Shown: positions 11,786 through 59,656 of the stretch, piece by piece
Layout of the letters: the number at the start of each line of letters is the position of its first letter
Position numbering within the stretch: position 1 is the first letter of the stretch
DNA from: a virus
Direction: 5' to 3' (one strand)
Length of the DNA: 64,000 bases
Virus record (IMG/VR): IMGVR_UViG_3300045988_091582
Made by a program: the position numbers and the translations under genes
The notes under the pieces: model-generated
Databases searched by the model: none
The model's input: the letters and a program-made list of their open reading frames with translations, nothing else
Told to the model about the DNA's origin: nothing

Positions 11786-12181
11786 AGTTATATGAATTAC
11801 ATTATCAATAACCTATAAATTTATATTATACTAATCAGGAAGGTCTTTAATACTCTGTATTAGTTGTTCTTTATTCATTTAATATTTCTTTTTGATTACA
11901 CGAGTAATATAGTCGAGGTATGGGATATTAAAAGTTAATTTTTGTAAAAGTTAATATTCTAAGATTTTTAAATTAAAATTTTAAAATTTTTTTAGGGAAG
12001 ATTTTATATAGCCCCCTGGGGTTTAAAAAATAGGGATTTTTGTAAGTAAGTAAGGATGATGTGGGATTTTAAAAATTAATTTTTATTATGTGGGAGGGAG
12101 TAGACTGCCCCTTAGAGCCCCCCACATATTTGGAGTAAAAACCAAACAAAAAATTATTAACAATTTAAAAAGTTAAAGATT

Positions 12182-12583
12182 ATGAAAATTTCAGTCGGTA
12201 AAAATGGTCAGGTGAACCATTCAGCTATGTCTGCTTCACAGATTGAGGCAGCTCTCAACAAGAGTGCTAACATCGTATTGTCACTTGGTGACAATGTTCA
12301 GTTGGACGCTAATGAGCGTACCATACCAGCCAACATGATGACTGGTACACCAGCGCAGTCTGTTGTCGTCTTAACAGCAACAGGCATCACTATTGATGGA
12401 CTCGATGGTGAAAGAACGGTAAATATGACAAGAATTTTGTCACAGGCTTGTCCAGGTTGTAATGACTTGCAAGCATGTGCCAAGTACTTGGAGGATAAGG
12501 GTATATCTACTATCACAGTGGATATTGAAACCCTTACAAATTATGGAAACGCTAAGCGTTTCTCTAATATCCGCTTGTCCTAA
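12182..12583 (+). CDS. hypothetical protein, higher-GC gene
   Basis: Track ORF 133 aa; visibly higher GC than surroundings; GC-rich hairpins upstream and a strong terminator downstream. Confidence 0.55.
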   Translation: MKISVGKNGQVNHSAMSASQIEAALNKSANIVLSLGDNVQLDANERTIPANMMTGTPAQSVVVLTATGITIDGLDGERTVNMTRILSQACPGCNDLQACAKYLEDKGISTITVDIETLTNYGNAKRFSNIRLS

Positions 12584-12586
12584 CCA

Positions 12587-12626
12587 AAAGGGGAGAGAGT
12601 AATCTCTCTCCTTTAAAATTTTTTTA
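12587..12626 (+). terminator. rho-independent terminator
   Basis: GGGGAGAGAG-TAAT-CTCTCTCC hairpin followed by a T run. Confidence 0.65.
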
Positions 12627-13233
12627 TAAATTTCTTTGTATTTTTTTGTATGTTCAAAACTATAAAAGGAGTTTATGGAAAAAATAGACTTGTTGACTTA
12701 GAAACTTTGGAATTCTACAATGTTCAACTTCCGACACAAATTGTTGGAATTTTTATGTTGCTCATTGAGAATGATAAAGTTATTGTGGTCAAATATGCAA
12801 TTTGGAGAAAAGAATGGAGTTGGTGGGGGATAAGTTGGGAATGGATAAGGAAGATTAGTTGTTTATATGGATTGGTATGAGTTTGTGCGCGCACGAACTC
12901 CCATCCACCAACCAAACCTTTCCTCAATTTCCCAATCTCTCCCACTAAAACCAACTTATATATCACTCCAAAGATCATCCTCACATCGAACAATTTATAA
13001 GAATTTTATACAATAATATTTTTATTCTTTGTAAGATGTTTTACTAAAAATAACAAAACAAAACAAAACACAAACAAAATTAAAGGTTTTTATTCTATAA
13101 GGTTGAAATCCCTGTCTAAAGTTTACTTTAGACGAAATCCTATAACGCAAAGCATACCTCAACGTGGTTTATAGGTCTTAAAACTAAAGTGCTTAAATTA
13201 AATTAGATTATTAACTCTTTAACATTTAAAATT

Positions 13234-13380
13234 ATGAAAGTAGTTATCAAAGAGAGTACTATCAAGGAACGCAGCCTACATTACAACTTTTGCTAAACCA
13301 GTAAAAGAGTTTAGAGGTTACACTTTGAAAGTTACTGGCAAATATAACAATCGTACAGGCGAATTTGAAAAATAAATCAA
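13234..13380 (+). pseudogene. frameshifted small ORF
   Basis: MKVVIKESTIKERSLHYNFC-stop; a +1 shift continues as TTFAKPVKEFRGYTLKVTGKYNNRTGEFEK. Confidence 0.3.
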
Positions 13381-13466
13381 GCTTCCACATTTCTATCAAG
13401 ACTCCTGAACATGAGTATAAACTGTTCACTTTTACATAAATAACACATTAACAAAAAACAAAAAAA

Positions 13467-13840
13467 ATGAAAAAGATTTTATTTAAGTCAGAGGAACTTA
13501 TTATTGTAGTAGACTCTGAATCAAAAGTAGTGTACGGAAACGTTTCGAGGAATGCAGCCTTAGAGTATCTTACTCCAAAGAATGCTATTGATTTCGCACG
13601 TTTACAAATGCTGTGTATACTTATTCTCTCAAGTAAGTATGTAGTAGCTAGAGAGATTAAAGTCACTACTAAAGTAGAAGTAACTGTCGCCTTCAGTAGT
13701 TAAGACTGCTGAAGATGCACTTCGTATAGCCGATAAATTCGGTCTTAAGGCAGAAGTGCAAAGAGAGCTTGATAATGGCGCTACGCCACTAGAAGCTCTT
13801 AAAGAGTGGGACATTCTATGATTGTTTTAGTCCATCCGAG
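13467..13840 (+). pseudogene. frameshifted ORF
   Basis: Track ORF 13467..13703 ends ...VAFSS-stop; the +1 frame continues as VKTAEDALRIADKFGLKAEVQRELDNGATPLEALKEWDIL. Confidence 0.3.
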
Positions 13841-14192
13841 TCCTGAGTAAGACTTTAAACTGCTCACTTTTACTTTGTAATCTCTACTATTCTTTTAGGG
13901 ATTGTAGCATTGTTATTTACAATAGTCAGAAAATTCTAACTTACGTAATGTAGTCTGATTGATGAAAGTATGTGTTAGCATTAGACGGACCATATAATAT
14001 GTTATTGCAGGTACATCTGCGAGAGATAAAAATTAAGATTGGCGTAACCCAATCGTAAATCTCATAATTATGCAATTCAACTCTTAGTAAAAGCTACTAA
14101 TATTCCATATTCAGTAGAATTAGCTAAGATCTCATAATTAACTCAGCGTAAAATGTGTTATGCGGTATTTAAACTTGTAAACAATTTAACGA

Positions 14193-14657
14193 ATGAAGAA
14201 ATACAACATTTGGAATAAAATTTTCCATAAAGGCGAATTAAACAAGAATGTTGCAGATTACAGACTCCAACAAGGTCTTGTTAATAGTTATGAGTGTTGG
14301 CTTACTAAAATTGGTAATGCCAATACTCTATCTGAGTGTATGATACTCCATAAACGTATTTGGCGTAAAGGTTTTCGTAATGCTAATCTTGGTCCAGATA
14401 AATATGGAATGTTTAGAACTAAAGATATAAACCTTATGACAATAAATGAGGTTTATATTGGAGGAATCTATGGTCTTAATACTTTAACCATTGCACAATG
14501 GGAAGACTGTAAAGAAGAACAGTATGATTCTGAACAAACTTGTTATAGCATTATTTTGTGTGCTTATAAAAGATTGTTAAAATCTAATATTATAGCACTT
14601 GCAGATAATGCTAAGTTATTAGTAGCAGAATACCAACAAAACAATTATAAGTTATGA
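14193..14657 (+). CDS. hypothetical protein
   Basis: Track ORF 154 aa. Confidence 0.45.
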   Translation: MKKYNIWNKIFHKGELNKNVADYRLQQGLVNSYECWLTKIGNANTLSECMILHKRIWRKGFRNANLGPDKYGMFRTKDINLMTINEVYIGGIYGLNTLTIAQWEDCKEEQYDSEQTCYSIILCAYKRLLKSNIIALADNAKLLVAEYQQNNYKL

Positions 14658-18729: not shown

Positions 18730-18813
18730 ACGGTAGTAGCTCAGTGGCTAGAGCATCTCTTTTTATAATAGGTCATTTCGAGAAGGTCATTGGTTCGAAT
18801 CCTTTCTACCGTA
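18730..18813 (+). tRNA. tRNA-like gene with expanded anticodon loop
   Basis: Perfect ACGGTAG/CTACCGT acceptor and D arm GCTC-AGTGGCTA-GAGC; anticodon stem TCTC/GAGA encloses a ~20-nt loop; T stem carries two T-T mismatches. Confidence 0.35.
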
Positions 18814-18914
18814 CAAATTTAATTAATATATTGTTAATGTGTATAAATCCTAACTAATAAATCTATTAGTATAGGTAGGTGTTACCACTATTCTCCTTAC
18901 AGAAATGTGGGCTA

Positions 18915-19169: not shown

Positions 19170-19184
19170 TCTGTGATAGATAGG
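19170..19184 (+). repeat. TCTGTGATAGATAGG motif, copy 3 (abuts tRNA)
   Basis: Exact 15-mer; its last two G are positions 1-2 of the tRNA-like gene at 19183. Confidence 0.6.
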
Positions 19185-19277
19185 CACTATCGTCTAGCTG
19201 GTTAAGACGCTACTTATTTAAAAGATATTATATTAAACTAAGTGGAAAGGCGATTTCGAGCATCGCTAGTGCTACCA
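19183..19277 (+). tRNA. tRNA-like gene with encoded CCA and 22-nt anticodon loop
   Basis: GGCACTA/TAGTGCT acceptor + A + CCA; D arm GTCT..AGAC; T arm GCGAT-TTCGAGC-ATCGC; anticodon stem CTACTTA/TAAGTGG encloses TTTAAAAGATATTATATTAAAC. Confidence 0.4.
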
Positions 19278-19388: not shown

Positions 19389-19466
19389 GGAGAAATGACT
19401 GAGTGGCACCCTGCTAAGGTGTTAGTCATATTATGTGGCTCGAAGGTTCGAATCCTTCTTTCTCCG
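19389..19466 (+). tRNA. tRNA-Ser(GCT)-like, short D region
   Basis: GGAGAAA/TTTCTCC acceptor; anticodon arm CACC-CTGCTAA-GGTG (GCU); long variable arm; T arm GAAGG-TTCGAAT-CCTTC; only ~9 nt where the D arm should be. Confidence 0.45.
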
Positions 19467-20944: not shown

Positions 20945-21017
20945 AAATGTGTAGCTTAAAGCGGTAGAGCACTGACTAGGTAACCAGAGGTTGGCAGTTC
21001 GAGTCTGTCCGCATTTC
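20945..21017 (+). tRNA. tRNA-like gene, anticodon arm unresolved
   Basis: AAATGTG/CGCATTT acceptor; D arm GCTT..GAGC; T arm GGCAG-TTCGAGT-CTGTC; 17 nt between do not form a canonical arm. Confidence 0.35.
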
Positions 21018-21211
21018 CTTTTTCTATCATAAATTTTAATTTTTAAGTTATTAAAAATAAAAGAGTTTTGCTTGTGAAAGTAGAATTTTTTATCAAAATC
21101 AAAATGTGAAAACTTTAATAAGTCGGAGGACTTACAAAACTCAAAAAAGTGTGTCTTAGTGGCAGCTAGCAAGTAGGGAGGAGAGAATTAACGACTCTCA
21201 GACACATCTTC

Positions 21212-31164: not shown

Positions 31165-31243
31165 AAAAATAAATGCCCCCTTGTAATTAACATCAGTTAG
31201 TTCTTAGATATTTAATTTTTATTATTTAAACATTTACAAATTT

Positions 31244-32797
31244 ATGGAACATTTAGTTCTTATTGGTGTTGTCGCAGTCGCTATTATTGTACTGCTTGTT
31301 ATTATTGCTACAATGTATGTTAAAGCTCCTCCTTCGATGGCATACATTCTTTCAGGTTTTCGTAAGGAGCCACGAGTACTTATCGGTAATGGTGGAGTAA
31401 AAATTCCTGTACTTGAGCGATTGGATAAAGTATATCTTGGTCAAGTAACAGTTGATGTTAAGACTTCACAGCCAGTCCCTACTCATGATTTCTTGGATGT
31501 AATGGTAGATGCCGTATGTAAAGTTAGGGTAAAACCTGATACAGAAGGCACTAGACTTGCAGCTAAGAACTTCTTGAATATGAACTCTGTTCAGATTGCT
31601 GCTCAGGTAAAAGATTCTTTGGAAGGTAATATGCGTGAAGTAGTAGGCTCTCTTGACTTGATTAAAATTAACACTGATAGAGATGCATTCTCTGATGAAA
31701 TTCAGAAGAAGGCAGCTCCTGATATGGCTAAGTTAGGTCTTGAGATTTTGTCTTGCAATATTCAGAATATTACTGATGAGAAGGGCTTGATCCGTGATTT
31801 GGGTGCTGATAATACAGCAGCTATTCAGAAGAATGCTAAAATTACCCGTGCTAATGCTGATAGAGATGTAGCTAAGGCTCAGGCTGAAGCTGACAATGAG
31901 GCTAATGAAGCACGAGTAAAAGCTGACACCATTATTGCTGAACGTAATAATGAGTTAGCTATTAAGAGAGCTGAACTGAAGAGATTGTCTGATATTAAGA
32001 AGGCTGAATCTGATGCTGCATATAAAATTCAGCAACAGGAGCAGCAGAAGACTATTAATATCAAGACTGTAGATGCTGATATTGAGAAGACTCGTATGGA
32101 ACAGACTTTGTCTGAGGAGAAGATCAAGATTAAGCAGAATGAGTATCTTGCAGATGTAAATGCTAAGGCTGATGCTGATAAGTATCAGACAGAGATTGAT
32201 GCTCAGGCTGCTTTGGAGAAGCAGAAGCGTGAAGCTGAGGCAGAAGCTTATAAAGCAGAGCAGGCTGCTAAGGCTGTAAAAGCTAAAGCTGAAGCTAATC
32301 GTTATTCTCAGGAACAGGAAGCAGCAGGTATTCGTGCTAAGGGTGAAGCTGAAGCATATGCTACTCAGCAGACTATGACTGCTGAGGCTGCAGGTATTAA
32401 AGCTAAGCTTTTAGCAGAAGCTGAAGGTGTTAAGGCTAAAGGTCTTGCAGAGGCTGAAGCTATGCAGAAGAAGGCTGAGGCTTACAGTAAGTATGGTCCA
32501 GCGGCTATAATTGATACTATCTCAGATCTTTATAAGGATGTTCTTCCTGATATGGCTAAGCATATTGCAGAGCCTATGAGTAAGATTGGTAGTATGACAG
32601 TTTATGGTACCAATGGTACTGAGGCTTCTGGTATTTCAGGTAATGTACCTGCTGTTATCAAACAAACTCGTGACATGGTAAAGGATGCCACAGGTGTAGA
32701 TATGGCAGAAATTATGAAGGCTAACACTATTGAAGCTAAGGTTAACAAGAATGTTAACGTTAATGGCGACGTAGAGAACACCAACGTAAATGTGTAA
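31244..32797 (+). CDS. SPFH/band-7 (flotillin-like) protein
   Basis: N-terminal TM helix, SPFH-like core, long Ala/Glu/Lys-rich coiled coil; higher-GC gene. Confidence 0.6.
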   Translation: MEHLVLIGVVAVAIIVLLVIIATMYVKAPPSMAYILSGFRKEPRVLIGNGGVKIPVLERLDKVYLGQVTVDVKTSQPVPTHDFLDVMVDAVCKVRVKPDTEGTRLAAKNFLNMNSVQIAAQVKDSLEGNMREVVGSLDLIKINTDRDAFSDEIQKKAAPDMAKLGLEILSCNIQNITDEKGLIRDLGADNTAAIQKNAKITRANADRDVAKAQAEADNEANEARVKADTIIAERNNELAIKRAELKRLSDIKKAESDAAYKIQQQEQQKTINIKTVDADIEKTRMEQTLSEEKIKIKQNEYLADVNAKADADKYQTEIDAQAALEKQKREAEAEAYKAEQAAKAVKAKAEANRYSQEQEAAGIRAKGEAEAYATQQTMTAEAAGIKAKLLAEAEGVKAKGLAEAEAMQKKAEAYSKYGPAAIIDTISDLYKDVLPDMAKHIAEPMSKIGSMTVYGTNGTEASGISGNVPAVIKQTRDMVKDATGVDMAEIMKANTIEAKVNKNVNVNGDVENTNVNV

Positions 32798-32811: not shown

Positions 32812-32842
32812 AGAGGGAGGGAATAATCTCTCCCTCTTTTTC
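32812..32842 (+). terminator. rho-independent terminator
   Basis: AGAGGGAGGG-AATAAT-CTCTCCCTC + TTTTT. Confidence 0.65.
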
Positions 32843-34905: not shown

Positions 34906-35274
34906 ATGTACAAAGAAGCATTACAGAAGAAATTACGTTTTAAGACAAACAAGGGTATGATTACTACAGAAGATTTGTTCGACTTATCTCTGCAGAATCT
35001 TAACACTTTAGCTATCATGCTGGATAAGAAGATTAGTGAGGCTCCTAAGAAGTCTTTCATTGAAGAGCTTCCAGCTGAAGAAAATGATGATGAACTTCGT
35101 TTCAGCATCGTAAAAGATGTAATTAATATTAAATTAAAGGCTCGTAAAGACAATATTAATAGAGCCCAGATTGATGCTCGTAACAAACGTATTGCTGAGC
35201 TTATCGCAAAGAAAGAGGACGAAGTTCTTGAGAATAAATCTATTGAAGAGCTTCGTGCTATGATTCAAAATTAA
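34906..35274 (+). CDS. hypothetical protein
   Basis: Track ORF 122 aa; acidic/coiled-coil. Confidence 0.45.
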   Translation: MYKEALQKKLRFKTNKGMITTEDLFDLSLQNLNTLAIMLDKKISEAPKKSFIEELPAEENDDELRFSIVKDVINIKLKARKDNINRAQIDARNKRIAELIAKKEDEVLENKSIEELRAMIQN

Positions 35275-35402
35275 AATTTTTAAGATTTTATTTTTAGAAA
35301 AAAAATTCACAACTATAATAACATCAGTAATAAGGAATACTTATTGAACGTTGTGAAACGTGAATTATAGTCGTGATAATTAAAAGGAAACTCAATCTTT
35401 TG

Positions 35403-35432
35403 AGGGGACTCTATTTAGAGTCCCCTCTTTTA
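35403..35432 (+). terminator. rho-independent terminator
   Basis: GAGGGGACTCTATTTAGAGTCCCCTC + TTTT. Confidence 0.65.
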
Positions 35433-38680: not shown

Positions 38681-39064
38681 ATGAAAAGATTTAAATTTAT
38701 ATTAATATTATTATGTTTTTTATGTACTAAAAGTATTGCTCAAACTGTAACTCATGTAACTCTTACTTGTTATCAACCAGTAAAGAGTCAGTGTAATAAT
38801 GAGCCATTAATTACAGCTGATGGTTCTAAAATTAATCTACATCATTTAAAACATAATAAAATTAAGTGGTGTGCTATATCTCGTGATTTACTTTATTTAT
38901 TTCCAAAGAATAAACCTAAAAAAGTATTTATAGATGGATTTGGAATATATGAAGTTAGGGATGTCATGAATAAAAGACATAAGCATCGTATTGATATATT
39001 AATACATCCTAAAAATTCTAAGAGAATTAGTATTAAGAATGTAAAAATTAAAATTCTTAAATAA
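38681..39064 (+). CDS. secreted hypothetical protein
   Basis: Track ORF 127 aa; signal peptide MKRFKFILILLCFLCTKSIAQ. Confidence 0.5.
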   Translation: MKRFKFILILLCFLCTKSIAQTVTHVTLTCYQPVKSQCNNEPLITADGSKINLHHLKHNKIKWCAISRDLLYLFPKNKPKKVFIDGFGIYEVRDVMNKRHKHRIDILIHPKNSKRISIKNVKIKILK

Positions 39065-40306: not shown

Positions 40307-40806
40307 ACTTAGTTTGGCTAAAATTAATAAAGCGAATCTTAACTCATAAGTATTATGTTGCTAAATATTGTTTTCAAATAGGATTATATTGGCAAGGTAT
40401 TACTCATGATTTATCTAAATTTAGTTTTACAGAATTCTCAAGAGCTATTAAGTACTGGGATGATAATATAAGTTCATTAGCAAATGAACGTAAAATATTA
40501 GGATATAGTCAAACATTCCTTCATCATAGAGGACGAAATCCTCATCATTATGAATATTGGATACATTCTTTAGATGATGGAGGAGTTCCTGCTAGAATGC
40601 CTAAAAAATATGTTTTAGAACTTATATGTGATTATTTAGCGGCAGCTAAAACATATGGAGCTGACCCTAGAAAAGAATATACATGGTGGGCTAAACAACA
40701 ATCTCATATGAAAATCCACAAAGAAACTAAGGATTATATAACTGAAGTGTTTTATAAATATAGTATAGGTTTAACATTAAAAGAATCAATTAATGGAAAT
40801 TATTAA
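40303..40806 (+). CDS. hypothetical protein, possible HD-type metal-dependent hydrolase
   Basis: Track ORF 167 aa; His-rich motifs ITHDLSKF and LHHRGRNPHHYEYW; assignment weak. Confidence 0.4.
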   Translation: MNLVWLKLIKRILTHKYYVAKYCFQIGLYWQGITHDLSKFSFTEFSRAIKYWDDNISSLANERKILGYSQTFLHHRGRNPHHYEYWIHSLDDGGVPARMPKKYVLELICDYLAAAKTYGADPRKEYTWWAKQQSHMKIHKETKDYITEVFYKYSIGLTLKESINGNY

Positions 40807-42346
40807 TGCAACTGATGGCTACAAGCTTGGTCATCATCGTATGTACCCAGAGGGTACACAAATGGTTTATAGTAACTGGACTCCTAGAAGTAATCGTTAC
40901 TTCCCAGAAGCTACAGAAGGTTCTGTAGTATTTGGTATTCAGTACTTTGTAAAAAAGTATTTGATAGAGGAATTTAACGAATGGTTTGTTCTTCCTAAGG
41001 AAGAAGCTATTAAACAGTTTTCTTATCGTGTAGGTAACTTTGTAGATATTAATCAGGTTGGAACAAAGCATATTGAGGAGCTTTATGATTTAGAATATCT
41101 TCCTATTGAAATTAAAGCTCTTCCTGAAGGTTCTATCTGTCCTATAAGAGTACCTATGATGACTATTAAAAATACTCTTCCTGATTTCTTCTGGTTGACT
41201 AATTATTTGGAGACTCTGATTAGTTGTACTCTATGGCTTCCTTGTACTTCTGCAACAAGTGCTCGTCTTTATAAGAAGAGACTTATGGAACATGCTAAAA
41301 AGACTGGATTCCCAGAAGATGTAAATTTAGGCTTCTCTTGTCACGATTTTTCAATGAGAGGTATGGCAGGACTTGATGCATCTGTTATTTCAGGTATGGC
41401 TCATATGACCTCATTCTGTGGTAGTGAAACAATTCCTGCTATCGAAGCAGTAGAGCATTATTATAATGCAGATGTTACTAAAGAACTCGTAGCTGCAACT
41501 GTTCCGGCTTCAGAACATTCAGTAATGTGCGCAGGGGGTGAAGATGGCGAGATTGAAACATATCGTCGTCTTATTAATGATCTATATCCAACAGGTATTA
41601 TCTCAATAGTATCTGATACTTGGGATTTCTGGCAGGTAGTTGAGAAATTCTTGCCTAAGCTTAAAGCAGACATTATAAAGCGTAATGGTCGAGTAGTAAT
41701 TCGCCCTGATAGTGGTGATCCAGTAGATATTATCTGTGGTCTTCGTACAAATCCTCATTACCACACTGCGATGAAGGAAGGTAAGTATTACTGTGATTTC
41801 AATCCATTTATGGATGATGATGAAAGTCATTATGTAGAAGTATCTGAAGGTCAGTATTATGGAGCATATTATATGCTAGGTAAAATCTTTGGATGGAATA
41901 CTACAGTAAATGATTATCGTTATCCAAGCACTAAGATTGGATTGCTTTATGGAGATTCTATCACTCTAGAACGTCAACGTGATATCTATACCAGATTAGA
42001 GAGTGCTCATATGGCAGCTTGTAATCTTGTTCTTGGTATTGGATCTTACACTTATCAGTTTAAGAGTCGTGATTCTTTAGGATTCGCAGTTAAAGCAACT
42101 GCTTGTATAATTAATGGCAGACTTATAGAAATTTATAAGCATCCAAAGACTGATGATGGAACGAAGAACTCTCTCAAAGGTCTTATTAGAGTTGAAGAAG
42201 AGAATGGTAAGTATGTCGCTTATGACCAGCAGACTAAGGATGCAGAACTGCAAGGTTGTCTTAAAACAATCTTTGTAGATGGAGAATTAGTAAGAGAATA
42301 TTCTCTTTCTGAAATTCGTGAACGTGTAAATTCAACATTAGTATGA
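40793..42346 (+). CDS. nadV: nicotinamide phosphoribosyltransferase (NAMPT/NadV)
   Basis: 517 aa; N-terminal ATDGYKLGHHRMYPEGT.MVYSN...R.. and overall length match the NAMPT family. Confidence 0.7.
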   Translation: MEIINATDGYKLGHHRMYPEGTQMVYSNWTPRSNRYFPEATEGSVVFGIQYFVKKYLIEEFNEWFVLPKEEAIKQFSYRVGNFVDINQVGTKHIEELYDLEYLPIEIKALPEGSICPIRVPMMTIKNTLPDFFWLTNYLETLISCTLWLPCTSATSARLYKKRLMEHAKKTGFPEDVNLGFSCHDFSMRGMAGLDASVISGMAHMTSFCGSETIPAIEAVEHYYNADVTKELVAATVPASEHSVMCAGGEDGEIETYRRLINDLYPTGIISIVSDTWDFWQVVEKFLPKLKADIIKRNGRVVIRPDSGDPVDIICGLRTNPHYHTAMKEGKYYCDFNPFMDDDESHYVEVSEGQYYGAYYMLGKIFGWNTTVNDYRYPSTKIGLLYGDSITLERQRDIYTRLESAHMAACNLVLGIGSYTYQFKSRDSLGFAVKATACIINGRLIEIYKHPKTDDGTKNSLKGLIRVEEENGKYVAYDQQTKDAELQGCLKTIFVDGELVREYSLSEIRERVNSTLV

Positions 42347-51662: not shown

Positions 51663-52411
51663 TTATTGGTTTAGCAGGTTTGAGTGGCACCGGAAAAAGC
51701 ACTTCTTTGCGTTATTTAGATTATAAAACAACATTTATTATTAGTTGTACTAATAAGCAGCTTCAAATTCCTGGATTTAGACGTAAATACAAGAAAGCTG
51801 AAGTTGTAAATAAAAAGCCAGTTGGAAATTGGCTTGTATCTAATGATTATACTACTATTGGTAAGTGGTTGAAAATTATTGATAAATTACGTCCTGATAT
51901 TAAGACAGTAGTTGTAGATGATGCTAACTATTGTCTTTCAAATAATATAATGGATTCTGCTCTTGAAAAAGGTTGGGATAAGCACGTTGTGTTTGCTAAA
52001 AATTACTATGATTTAATCATGGAAGCTAGTGAACTGCGTGAGGATCTTAATGTAGTATTCATTAGTCATATTATTAATGCTGGTACTGACCTCGACGAAC
52101 ATTGGCAGTTATATTCTAGTGGTAAAATGTTGGATAGAACCGTAAATATTGACGGTTTATTTTCTTATATTTTATATACTGAACGCCAGGTTGATGATGA
52201 TGGCAATATTAGTTATTTCTTTAGAACTAAAACCAACGGTAACGATACTTGTCGTAGTGTTGACGGATGTTTTAAAGATAAACTGATTGAACCTAATATG
52301 CAGAAGGTTTTAGATACTATCCATAACTTTGAATATAGTGAGGAAGAAGAAATCGCAGATGACAATAATGAAACCAATAATGATGACAATATTTTAAATG
52401 AAGCTAATTAA
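51659..52411 (+). CDS. P-loop NTPase (possible helicase loader)
   Basis: 250 aa; Walker A GLAGLSGTGKST, Walker B VVVDDAN; acidic C-terminus. Confidence 0.5.
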   Translation: MIIGLAGLSGTGKSTSLRYLDYKTTFIISCTNKQLQIPGFRRKYKKAEVVNKKPVGNWLVSNDYTTIGKWLKIIDKLRPDIKTVVVDDANYCLSNNIMDSALEKGWDKHVVFAKNYYDLIMEASELREDLNVVFISHIINAGTDLDEHWQLYSSGKMLDRTVNIDGLFSYILYTERQVDDDGNISYFFRTKTNGNDTCRSVDGCFKDKLIEPNMQKVLDTIHNFEYSEEEEIADDNNETNNDDNILNEAN

Positions 52412-53003
52412 AATGACAATTAAGTCCGAGTGGCTTAATGAAGAAACTGGAGAAATTTTTACTGATACACGTGAATTGAAGGATGATTCTGTAAAGAAGC
52501 CGTCTACTCGTAAGTCTTCTTCTAAAAAGAAAGACTCAGAAGTGGATGATACAAATCCTAATCCACTATTAATTCTTGAGGAGAATAAGTATATTCTTAA
52601 TAAGGCTGCTGTTGAGGCTCTTGGTGTAGAACCAGGAGATAAAGTAGATATTAAACAGCAGAAGCTTAATAAGAAAGAGTGCCTAGTTATCGGAGCTACT
52701 GAAACATTTGGTACGCAGTCAGGTAATAAATTAACTCAGAAAAATGCAGTTTCATATAGAGGAAAGAATAACCAGAACCTTGCTGAGCATGGTAATGAGT
52801 TTACTTTCACTCCACATCCTAAAATTGATGGATTGTTTATATTAACAGGTAATCGAGAGCCTGAGATTAAAGAAGATGTAGTCCCTGAAGCAGAGGATAT
52901 TGCATCAGAAGATGAATTAGATGACGAAATGGCTAGTCTTATTGACGGCAGCGCAGATGATACAGAAATCTCAGATAATGATTTTAATTTCGATAATCTT
53001 TAA
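52398..53003 (+). CDS. acidic hypothetical protein
   Basis: Track ORF 201 aa; Asp/Glu-rich tail. Confidence 0.45.
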   Translation: MKLIKMTIKSEWLNEETGEIFTDTRELKDDSVKKPSTRKSSSKKKDSEVDDTNPNPLLILEENKYILNKAAVEALGVEPGDKVDIKQQKLNKKECLVIGATETFGTQSGNKLTQKNAVSYRGKNNQNLAEHGNEFTFTPHPKIDGLFILTGNREPEIKEDVVPEAEDIASEDELDDEMASLIDGSADDTEISDNDFNFDNL

Positions 53004-53015
53004 TAATATAGCAAT

Positions 53016-53786
53016 ATGAATTTAAATTTTGGTGGTCTTGGTGATATTAATCCTACAAGTAAGAAAGGTCTTCGTCCTTATGGAATTTATCTCGTTCAGT
53101 TAAAAAGTGTAGAAACTAAAGAGGGTAAAGGTAAGCAAGACCCTGACACAACTTGGAAATCTCTAGTACTTCATTTTGAAGGTGAACAAGGAACTTATCA
53201 AGAATCATTGTTTTATCCTAATGAAAGTTCTGCTAAAAGATATGAGGGTAAGAGAAAAGATTCTAAAGGTGTAGAGTTCCCATATGTACTTCCTTCAGCA
53301 TTTGAGCAGCTTAAGGGTTTTATGCTGCATATTATAACAGTAGTAGGAGGTGATAAGGCTAAAGAATTGTTTGTAACTAAAGCTCCTGCTTGTAAGAGTA
53401 CTGACCAATTCATGCAGCTTTTCCAGGCAGTATTGACTAAGTATTGTATGAATAAAAACTTTTATTTAAAGCTTAGTGGTCGTAAGGAAAAGAAAAAGGA
53501 TGAAAAAGGAATTATGAAGGAAACTGGTAATGTATTTGCCAAAATTCCTGATATTGGAGCTATTAATAGTGATGGACAGTTCTATATCCGTGATAATTTT
53601 GCTAGCTTAGAGGAAGATAAATTGTCATTCTCTAGTTATGAGATTAAACAGAAGGAGGATATGGAGAAGCGTAAGCCTACTGCTCCTGTGCCAGCAGCTG
53701 ATTCAGAAGAGGCTAAATCTATTGACTCTACTGAAGGCAAGGAGGCTCAAGATGAAGACTTCGACGCTATGCTGGCAGATATGTAG
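53016..53786 (+). CDS. putative single-stranded DNA-binding protein
   Basis: 256 aa; SSB-like acidic C-terminal tip ...QDEDFDAMLADM; sits in the replication module; inference only. Confidence 0.4.
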   Translation: MNLNFGGLGDINPTSKKGLRPYGIYLVQLKSVETKEGKGKQDPDTTWKSLVLHFEGEQGTYQESLFYPNESSAKRYEGKRKDSKGVEFPYVLPSAFEQLKGFMLHIITVVGGDKAKELFVTKAPACKSTDQFMQLFQAVLTKYCMNKNFYLKLSGRKEKKKDEKGIMKETGNVFAKIPDIGAINSDGQFYIRDNFASLEEDKLSFSSYEIKQKEDMEKRKPTAPVPAADSEEAKSIDSTEGKEAQDEDFDAMLADM

Positions 53787-58953: not shown

Positions 58954-59598
58954 ATGAGTGAAATTTTTAATTTTAAGAGTTTTGAAGTAAATGCAGAAAC
59001 AAAGGAAGCAGCAGTAGCACAGGTAGAGAAAGAGAATTTCCATATTAATGGTGATGCAACACAGGCATGGAAGAAGTTCCATGAGAGAAATACTAAAGTA
59101 ACTTCTAATGATGAGAAGGAATTTAAGCTGGAGTATTTGAAGAAAAAGACTAAGAATGCTCCTGGTAGTGGTTTCATTGTAACTCTTTCTAGTGCTGTTG
59201 TAAGTACACGTGAGCGTCCTTGGAAGGTTGTTGATATTAAGACTGAGGGTAAGCGTGATACTCAGAAGAAGTTTGATTTGGTAGACCACGATACAAAGGA
59301 AGTACTGAAGACTTTGAAGTCTGAGCGTGTAAAGAACGAGAAGGCTGGCGAGCCAATTCTTGATAAGGATGGTAACGATACTGGTCGTGTTGAGCCAGAT
59401 ACAAAGGTTATTCGTCCTACTAAGACCGCAGCTAAGGAAATGGCTAAGGAACTTATTAAGAAGGGCTTTAAGGGTCAGATCGATATCGTTCAGGGTAAGG
59501 AGTCTATTGGTTCTGATCCAGTAGTAGCTACTGTAACTTATACTCCATCTAAGAGTACTAAGAATGGTCGCTATATGTTCTTTGGTTTGGAATTTTAA
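58954..59598 (+). CDS. hypothetical Lys/Glu-rich protein, higher-GC gene
   Basis: Within track ORF 58918..59598; start MSEIFNFKSF at 58954; elevated GC; followed by a strong terminator. Confidence 0.5.
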   Translation: MSEIFNFKSFEVNAETKEAAVAQVEKENFHINGDATQAWKKFHERNTKVTSNDEKEFKLEYLKKKTKNAPGSGFIVTLSSAVVSTRERPWKVVDIKTEGKRDTQKKFDLVDHDTKEVLKTLKSERVKNEKAGEPILDKDGNDTGRVEPDTKVIRPTKTAAKEMAKELIKKGFKGQIDIVQGKESIGSDPVVATVTYTPSKSTKNGRYMFFGLEF

Positions 59599-59622: not shown

Positions 59623-59656
59623 AAGGCAGGTGCTCGCGAGAGTATCTGCCTTTTGT
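59623..59656 (+). terminator. rho-independent terminator
   Basis: AAGGCAGGTGCTCGCGAGAGTATCTGCCTT + TTGT. Confidence 0.55.

Follow-up and report, generated by a model that had tools for sequence, protein, structure and literature searches.

Self-contained, terminator-bearing units of deviant composition are the classical morons of the lambdoid-phage literature. Regarding codon choice, it is established that early and late phage genes differ in codon bias (PMC5683454); the crAss-like phage phi14:2 transcribes abundant, unexplained early non-coding RNAs from intergenic regions at its left end (bioRxiv 10.1101/2020.03.07.982082). The stretch analyzed here is the IMG/VR virus record IMGVR_UViG_3300045988_091582, whose 64,000 nucleotides (nt) are hereafter called the window; it has a GC content of 29.6% and carries, all on the plus strand, three GC-rich genes: gene 1 (12182–12583, 133 amino acids), gene 2 (31244–32797), coding for a flotillin of 517 amino acids, and gene 3 (58954–59598, 214 amino acids). 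Codon choice, conservation and terminators suggest, with moderate confidence, that these GC-rich islands are heavily expressed genes of the standard-code (early/middle) region, shaped by translational or expression selection.

Per-gene statistics refer to the 68 genes of the window, with the 65 genes other than the three outliers as background. Gene 1, with the highest GC and codon bias in the window, has a GC content of 42.9% and a GC content at third codon positions (GC3) of 39.8%; the corresponding values are 40.4% and 29.2% for gene 2, and 39.1% and 33.6% for gene 3, against 29.2 ± 3.0% and 17.9 ± 4.9% in the background (z = 3.3–4.5 for GC and 2.3–4.5 for GC3). A preliminary description of this DNA had singled out these genes as richer in GC than a ~30% background, and they do fall outside the genome-wide distribution. 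On a codon index defined as the G-ending fraction in the Lys, Gln, Glu and TTR-Leu boxes, genes 1–3 occupy the first three ranks of 68, with values of 0.66–0.81 (z 4.0–5.4; 0.66 and z 4.0 for gene 2) against 0.22 ± 0.11.

The dialect behind this index favors AAG, CAG, GAG, GGT, CGT and TTG/CTT, and it avoids ATA, AGA, GGA, TTA and CTA, which are depleted in genes 1–3 with z from −2.5 to −3.6. In genes 1–3 AAG makes up 67–91% of Lys codons (29% in the background), CAG 83–100% of Gln codons (31%), GAG 48–60% of Glu codons (23%), GGT 70–85% of Gly codons (46%) and CGT 40–75% of Arg codons (24%), while TTA drops from 52% to 0–13% of Leu codons and ATA from 38% to 0–18% of Ile codons. Other families keep their habits: GCT, ACT, TCT and GTA are still the preferred codons, and in genes 2 and 3 the C-ending codons of the pyrimidine-ending (NNY) boxes are not raised (z 0.5–0.8, the upper value being that of gene 2), with GAT, AAT, CAT and TAT still dominant.

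The excess of GC is partly due to amino acid composition and partly to this specific dialect, as found by re-encoding each protein with the background codon usage: the amino acid part and the codon-choice part amount to +5.3 and +8.0 points for gene 1, +6.2 and +4.6 for gene 2, and +3.3 and +6.2 for gene 3. The biased proteins are somewhat enriched in Ala, Gly, Val and Glu, and the coiled-coil region of the flotillin is Ala- and Glu-rich, so that the whole excess might be thought a by-product of Ala, Gly, Glu and Val content, or a chance event among about 70 genes. The amino acid part, +3.3 to +6.2 points (z 1.8–3.1), speaks for this; nevertheless, the partition refutes it, because codon choice adds +4.6 to +8.0 points (z 2.4–4.1, the maximum in gene 1), the same genes are outliers in most of the independently diverged genomes, and a nearly identical flotillin from a related phage has a GC3 of only 15.5%. 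Such a by-product is hardly credible as the explanation.

The dialect extends beyond the three genes named in the preliminary description, which had missed a fourth one with the same codon signature, 34906–35274 (+), encoding a 122-amino-acid protein with a match to phrog_2018 in PHROG. Its codon-choice excess, +6.2 GC points, is the second highest in the window, with a GC3 of 32.8%; it had escaped notice because its amino acid composition is AT-rich. Its orthologues in two related phages (L099 and L100; the related loci carry L numbers) are biased as well. The codon usage of the flotillin correlates with that of genes 1, 3 and 4 taken together with r = 0.88, against 0.65–0.69 for the biased genes and the phage background. 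The nicotinamide phosphoribosyltransferase (NAMPT) gene (40793–42346, +) and two genes of unknown function (52398–53003 and 53016–53786) have intermediate indices of 0.44–0.52, so the dialect comes in degrees and is not all-or-none.

As for the terminators, each of genes 1–3 is followed, 4–25 nt downstream, by a strong hairpin with a T-run. The intrinsic terminator of gene 1 (12587–12614, +; AAAGGGGAGAGAGTAATCTCTCTCCTTT) has a 12-bp stem, a TAAT loop and a T-run placed after an AAAA spacer; the one of gene 2 (32812–32837, +; AGAGGGAGGGAATAATCTCTCCCTCT) has an 11-bp stem with 6 GC pairs, and both follow a GGGAG...TAAT...CTCCC design. The terminator of gene 3 (59623–59652, +; AAGGCAGGTGCTCGCGAGAGTATCTGCCTT) has a 13-bp stem with 6 GC pairs and a sequence unrelated to the other two. 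The earlier suggestion of three similar GGGAG/CTCCC-type terminators thus stands for the presence of a strong terminator after every gene, and for their likeness only in the first two. The strongest terminator-like hairpin of the window (35402–35427, +; 11-bp stem, 7 GC pairs) lies 128 nt downstream of the fourth gene, and the four largest codon excesses belong to four of the five plus-strand genes that are followed, no more than 130 nt downstream, by a strong terminator (hypergeometric P about 9e-6). These structures are maintained in related phages: that of gene 1 recurs in every related locus, its stem showing small paired changes; that of gene 2 is preserved in L099 and L100 through paired changes (GAGGGAGAG.../...CTCTCCCTC and GAGGAAGAG.../...CTCTTCCTC); and a strong terminator follows every gene 3 orthologue examined, with a sequence that varies by clade.

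The bias itself is also old. Gene 3 encodes a basic protein (pI 9.3) of the replication/recombination module, where it sits between a RecE-like exonuclease and another exonuclease; its ATG at 58954 is backed by the alignment of homologues. It has 70 homologues, all on metagenomic contigs, the long ones being 100–185 kb like the relatives of this phage, and it occupies the same place in 80 loci with identities of 39–98%; among 18 diverse loci, these orthologues are first or second in GC and codon index in most. Orthologues of gene 1 have 43–46% GC within loci of 28–31% GC, including alleles with 40–59% amino acid identity, and all its allele classes show the GGT/AAG/CAG preferences of genes 2 and 3. 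The bias is kept consistently over deep divergence and is therefore maintained, not decaying.

Codon adaptation for very high expression, one of the two origins offered in the preliminary description, is borne out in so far as the bias is codon-specific, shared, mostly conserved and linked to terminators; as for the remainder of that proposal, we infer from sequence that the biased genes are highly expressed, early in timing and matched to host tRNAs. The changed boxes would be those where tRNA species compete, namely the purine-ending (NNR) and the four- and six-fold boxes, and the NNY boxes of Asp, Asn, His and Tyr, each decoded by one GNN tRNA, would stay at the AT-rich mutational default. 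This split is the footprint expected when codons are selected for efficient decoding by the host tRNA pool, and it disfavors a bulk GC shift of foreign origin because in that case both kinds of box would move.

The same box-by-box pattern bears on selection at the level of mRNA or DNA, by which a higher GC content would shield these genes from AU-directed RNases, premature termination or AT-silencing and, together with the 3′ hairpin, would raise transcript stability. All the biased genes do end in a stable 3′ hairpin, a structure also protective against 3′ exonucleases, and in gene 1 the rise of GC3 is more general and includes C-ending codons. However, the shift in genes 2 and 3 is limited to certain boxes, while pure GC pressure should also use the NNY codons, which stay T-ending; moreover, GCT, ACT, TCT and GTA keep their rank in the biased genes. 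We regard this second kind of selection as unlikely.

Selection for decoding efficiency would also agree with the layout of the genome. Long open reading frames (ORFs) appear in the interval 1158–9801 (+) only when TAG is taken as a sense codon, and the remainder of the window uses the standard code; this recoded late block has six ORFs of 225–952 codons with 104 in-frame TAGs, five of the six ending in TAA, and one of its products is a transglycosylase-type virion protein. These ORFs have the lowest codon indices, 0.09–0.20. The phage tRNAs, 12 of which are encoded in the window, read AGA, CAA, TTA, ACA and GCA; the biased genes avoid AGA, CAA and TTA, and genes 1–3 contain no TAG, and they are therefore translatable before the phage tRNAs and the suppressor act. 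The host apparatus alone would translate the biased genes well, ahead of the phage tRNAs and the suppressor, while the late block makes heavy use of A-ending codons and TAG. The strong terminators and the dialect would then mark the biased genes as strongly expressed units of the pre-late program.

Turning to gene 2, the preliminary description had called its product an SPFH protein, and this is correct: the Band_7 domain (PF01145) is matched at residues 29–206 with 75.1 bits against a cutoff of 23.6 (E = 9e-21), and the Flot domain (PF15975) at residues 380–478 with 43.4 bits against a cutoff of 27 (E = 4.5e-11). The N-terminal hydrophobic stretch MEHLVLIGVVAVAIIVLLV is predicted to be a helix. 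The gene lies between those of an AAA ATPase and a DUF8224 protein, and it is syntenic in L099, L100 and L101. Its product is 56–69% identical to chromosomal flotillins of Bacteroidales, Alloprevotella, Paludibacteraceae and Prevotella metagenome-assembled genomes, one of which adjoins an NADH dehydrogenase operon; by this comparison, gene 2 is clearly derived from a Bacteroidales host.

This origin speaks for reading the islands as morons, that is, as recent imports from a Bacteroidales host of ~40–45% GC that bring their own promoter and terminator and have not yet drifted to the AT-rich state. A terminator of their own and a composition unlike that of the neighbors fit the description of a moron, and some Bacteroidales/Prevotella loci of 43% GC correlate with the dialect with r = 0.73–0.80, above the 0.65 of the phage background. 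Yet the closest bacterial flotillin loci, of 50–56% GC, have a codon usage unrelated to that of gene 2 (r about 0), and a residual donor composition was rejected, since the codons of gene 2 are unlike those of its closest bacterial relatives and like those of the other biased phage genes. The flotillins of L099 and L100 keep the bias; the one of L101, which shares 88% of its amino acids with gene 2, is instead fully AT-adapted, with a degenerate terminator and a third-position identity to the window gene of 57%. Since nearly the same protein is written there in AT-rich codons, composition follows context and not origin; gene 2 would have been acquired from a host and later re-tuned to the phage dialect.

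As for genes 1 and 3, no cellular homologue was found among 5.8 billion proteins or among 1.84 billion representatives, and the constant places of both genes, together with the synteny of the flotillin in L099–L101, do not agree with the sporadic presence of a moron. Gene 3, fixed in the replication module and biased in most orthologues, is old and should have ameliorated. In addition, loci of Bacteroidales with 38–46% GC have average fractions of 0.54 for G-ending NNR, 0.46 for C-ending NNY, 0.39 for GGT and 0.39 for CGT codons; the biased phage genes stand above these averages for NNR and GGT, at or above them for CGT (0.40–0.75) and below them for NNY, and this combination of overshoot and undershoot, which is consistent with selection, would not result from an inherited host composition. 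Recent import of genes 1 and 3 seems unlikely because the bias is kept in most orthologues and no cellular homologues were found, and for these two genes the import reading appears largely refuted; as an account of all the islands we deem it improbable. The second origin offered in the preliminary description, acquisition from a host with Bacteroides-like GC, accordingly survives for the descent of the flotillin only, and fails for its composition and for genes 1 and 3.

Several observations weigh against expression selection as the cause of the dialect. The L101 flotillin, in a phage of 193 kb, is unbiased (GC3 15.5%, index 0.27), and in a subclade of 34–35% GC (L026, L027 and L052) the bias of gene 3 is weak or absent. 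In gene 1 the C-ending codons are raised (z 2.9), so that its GC excess is in part a broader shift, and its synonymous divergence (dS) is high, 1.1–1.9, codon selection thus not visibly slowing synonymous change. ACA and GCA, likewise served by phage tRNAs, are not avoided; the AT-rich, unbiased gene 38681–39064 has a terminator too; and the best generic Bacteroidales loci reach only r = 0.73–0.80 with the dialect.

Gene 1 deserves a separate discussion, as it opens the rightward block and has a history unlike that of its surroundings. Regarding its protein, no significant profile match was obtained in Pfam, PHROG or PDB, the matches to DUF6455 being weak and below cutoff, and an AlphaFold2 model built with 18 close homologues was poor (predicted local distance difference test score of 48) and unusable for a fold search. 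The 154 homologues are all on metagenomic contigs of related phages, of which the long ones measure 100–185 kb, as for gene 3, and an exhaustive pass over the 1.84 billion representatives (50% identity) returned 9 members of the family and a spurious repeat protein. The gene is present in every locus that has the flanking motifs and enough following sequence for an ORF. In L101, two genes of 131 amino acids (2554–2949 and 3545–3940) have 40–44% GC and 42–50% GC3, with no similarity to gene 1.

In nine related loci, the 85 nt upstream of gene 1 are 77–96% identical (84–96% in eight of them) and the 640 nt downstream 65–93% (73–93% in eight), while the coding sequence is 55–90% identical in nucleotides and 40–95% in amino acids, the alleles overall covering 40–98%. 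Phages whose gene 3 is 95–98% identical to that of the window carry alleles of gene 1 at only 40–59%. Within the allele class of the window, the ratio of nonsynonymous to synonymous divergence (dN/dS) is 0.09–0.13, and dS is far above the 0.29–0.45 found for the adjacent 76-amino-acid ORF in the same pairs of genomes; given this excess and the conserved flanks, the alleles are much older than the flanks. These values point to a functional protein whose alleles would be swapped or preserved through recombination in the conserved flanks, and gene 1 presents itself as an old allelic cassette between nearly invariant non-coding flanks.

For this gene alone, frequent recombination of the cassette might have raised the GC content through GC-biased gene conversion. 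The recombination is suggested by the dS values just given, and G- and C-ending codons are both raised in gene 1; on the other hand, the conserved flanks, necessarily the sites of crossover, are AT-rich, and every allele class shares the GGT/AAG/CAG preference with genes 2 and 3. To our knowledge, GC-biased conversion in phages is itself unproven, and we consider it very improbable here.

On the upstream side, a nearly invariant linear motif of 43 nt (12105–12147, +; CTGCCCCTTAGAGCCCCCCACATATTTGGAGTAAAAACCAAAC) ends 35 nt before the ATG of gene 1. It is kept in all related loci, even when the gene 1 protein is only 40–59% identical, and the window has no second copy of it when up to 3 mismatches are allowed. 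The motif includes CATATTTG, which differs at a single base from the Bacteroidetes −7 box TAnnTTTG, and no TTTG is found at −33 in it; at the level of a guess, it is a candidate promoter plus the start of a 5′ leader. The region upstream of the motif (11786–12104 in the window, 6088–6829 in L001) occurs in two forms, one window-like and the other with an extra leftward gene (151 amino acids in L001, 308 in L097), and the junction between the two forms is the exact start of the motif (CTGCCCC).

The GC-rich hairpins placed before gene 1 in the preliminary description (ATGTGGGAGGG...CCCCCCACAT, 12088–12127, +) exist as a sequence and not as a conserved structure. As an RNA or DNA structure the candidate was rejected: the fold is no better than that of shuffled sequences (z = −0.87), about half of the related loci (L001, L002, L004, L005 and L097) carry unrelated sequence in place of its 5′ arm, and in L003, L093 and L095 a pair is broken by an uncompensated T>C change. 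A promoter motif common to genes 1–3 was rejected too, because TGCCCC(C)TT precedes only genes 1 and 2; ACATCAGT is located at 31190–31197, 54 nt before the ATG of gene 2, and also precedes gene 3 orthologues in other clades, but its 3 copies in the window are no more than chance would give (2.35 expected). In other clades (L026–L083), (T)TACATCAGT recurs 5′ of gene 3 orthologues, often after a TATAAT-like box. Scans for sigma-70-type promoters near genes 1–3 gave chance-level results.

On the downstream side, the conserved flank includes, right after the terminator of gene 1, the small ORF of 76 amino acids (12650–12880, +), whose product has a hydrophobic center and a Trp-rich tail (WSWWGISWEWIRK); it is open in all related loci, with a dN/dS of 0.13–0.27. 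Its purine-rich 3′ end pairs with a downstream C-rich tract in a long imperfect hairpin (about 12816–12952, +; −62 kcal/mol, z = −3.26, with 0 of 200 shuffles as stable), and in L002 10 bp of complementarity seem to persist in another register. Further on, an element of about 96 nt (13099–13194, +), non-coding and with two hairpins, is nearly invariant, also in the contigs found with an exact 19-mer. One of its stems is kept in L002/L088 despite a different loop, and RNAalifold gives 22 pairs with 1 compensatory change, the element being too invariant to test covariation. In Rfam, the interval 11800–14300 has two chance-level matches (E 0.51 and 0.67), and neither overlaps the 96-nt element (E ≤ 1).

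Regarding the role of this locus, we would guess that gene 1 specifies an abundantly made, host-interacting protein; ancient, exchanged alleles are the pattern expected where a protein and the host are directly opposed. A tentative extension, which we advance with little confidence, is that gene 1 with its flanks is an expression cassette dedicated to the immediate-early stage in this phage lineage: a nearly invariant, non-canonical promoter/leader and the conserved terminator would drive a very high output of a small protein with ancient alleles, for example an anti-defense or takeover factor or a target of abortive-infection sensing, with alleles exchanged through the flanks, and the 12816–12952 hairpin and the 96-nt element would be abundant early RNAs like the long non-coding RNAs of phi14:2.

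In the ENA and Logan indices gene 1 is mostly alone on contigs shorter than 2 kb (27 of 39 and 34 of 46 index blocks). That these contigs derive from abundant transcripts was rejected, as the ones inspected are metagenome fragments of low coverage whose ends vary; their excess is likely an assembly or coverage bias toward a GC-richer, conserved island.

Concerning the remaining genes, gene 1 is preceded by a short leftward cluster, an HNH endonuclease among its products, and from 12182 to the end about 60 co-directional, standard-code genes form a 52-kb rightward block that encodes helicases, a primase, exonucleases, NAMPT and the 12 tRNAs. Further GC peaks, at 18–21 kb and 36–37.5 kb, correspond to tRNA clusters, and an Rfam scan of the window at gathering thresholds found tRNAs only. 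ARAGORN calls two suppressor-like tRNAs of 85 and 95 nt (18730–18814 and 19183–19277, +) with the anticodon TTA, which reads UAA, and Rfam supports only the first; these calls are at odds with the recoded codon, which is TAG, and with TAA as the main stop, so that the anticodon may be mis-assigned, an intron may be present, or UUA may read UAG by wobble. A tRNA at 20945–21018 (+) is called with a four-base anticodon (aggt), and another at 19389–19466 (+) is detected by Rfam alone, with no ARAGORN call. A frameshift near 13700 splits the gene at 13467–13813 (+), whose counterpart in L001 (8505–8879) is an intact ORF of 124 amino acids, and the ORF starting at 13236 is shorter than the genes of 100–111 amino acids in the relatives; both could reflect assembly errors, gene decay or programmed events.

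As for the identity of the phage, the human-fecal phage records MT835539 and MT835492 are similar to the window, and related contigs from IMG/VR, ENA and Logan measure 140–193 kb, close to the 145–192 kb of the Zeta group of crAss-like phages (PMC7886860). Zeta-group phages likewise come from the human gut, carry many tRNAs including putative suppressors, reassign TAG in part of the genome, and have an HNH endonuclease and fragmented genes (PMC7886860); by analogy, with its 12 tRNAs and TAG recoding in 1158–9801, this phage matches their description. No TerL, capsid or RNA polymerase gene was identified in the window, and placement by the DUF8224 protein was uninformative, this protein being common in unrelated large phages.

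In conclusion, these findings do not overturn current understanding; their value lies elsewhere. Markers of heavily expressed genes that can be read from the DNA help the choice of targets in uncultured gut phages, and here they point to three uncharacterized proteins and a host-derived flotillin as the products in which this abundant lineage invests, the phage-borne flotillin being suggestive of membrane remodeling during infection. The coexistence of host-tuned, standard-code genes with a TAG-recoded late block that apparently depends on phage tRNAs agrees with the view that late translation is timed by recoding and by such tRNAs, for which this split is a concrete test case. The cassette of gene 1, with its old alleles and invariant flanks, is a candidate locus of phage–host conflict and the more unusual element of the finding.

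Compared with the systems known so far, the flotillin of this phage shares with the bacterial proteins of the FloT/YqiK type both the Band_7 and Flot domains, the N-terminal hydrophobic helix and an equal length, and differs from them in being phage-encoded and tuned to a phage-specific codon usage; flotillins are not mentioned in the survey of crAss-like genomes (PMC7886860). The islands resemble lambdoid morons in being bounded by terminators and unlike their neighbors in composition, and in the cellular origin of the flotillin; unlike morons, they are found at constant syntenic sites throughout a deep clade of phages, two of the three lack cellular homologues, and no donor matches their composition. 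The locus of gene 1 is similar to the left end of phi14:2 in that, at the start of a rightward block, gene 1 has behind it some 600 nt of strongly conserved DNA, much of it non-coding and with hairpins, and differs from it in having no sequence similarity and in carrying a conserved protein gene and a small ORF where phi14:2 is non-coding; by analogy, the phi14:2 RNAs are a possible parallel to the right flank. The closest likeness is to the tRNA-bearing phages in which highly expressed genes have a codon bias and early and late genes differ (PMC5683454; PMC12482277): there as here, a subset of genes shares distinct codons, the phage tRNAs match the codons common in the remaining, especially late, genes, and the biased genes are insulated by terminators. 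What differs is the setting, a TAG-recoded gut phage of ~30% GC where the bias falls on standard-code genes and the late block resembles the host least, with a shift confined to the boxes that discriminate between tRNA species. Codon tuning combined with insulation by terminators is here most likely an instance of the known pattern.

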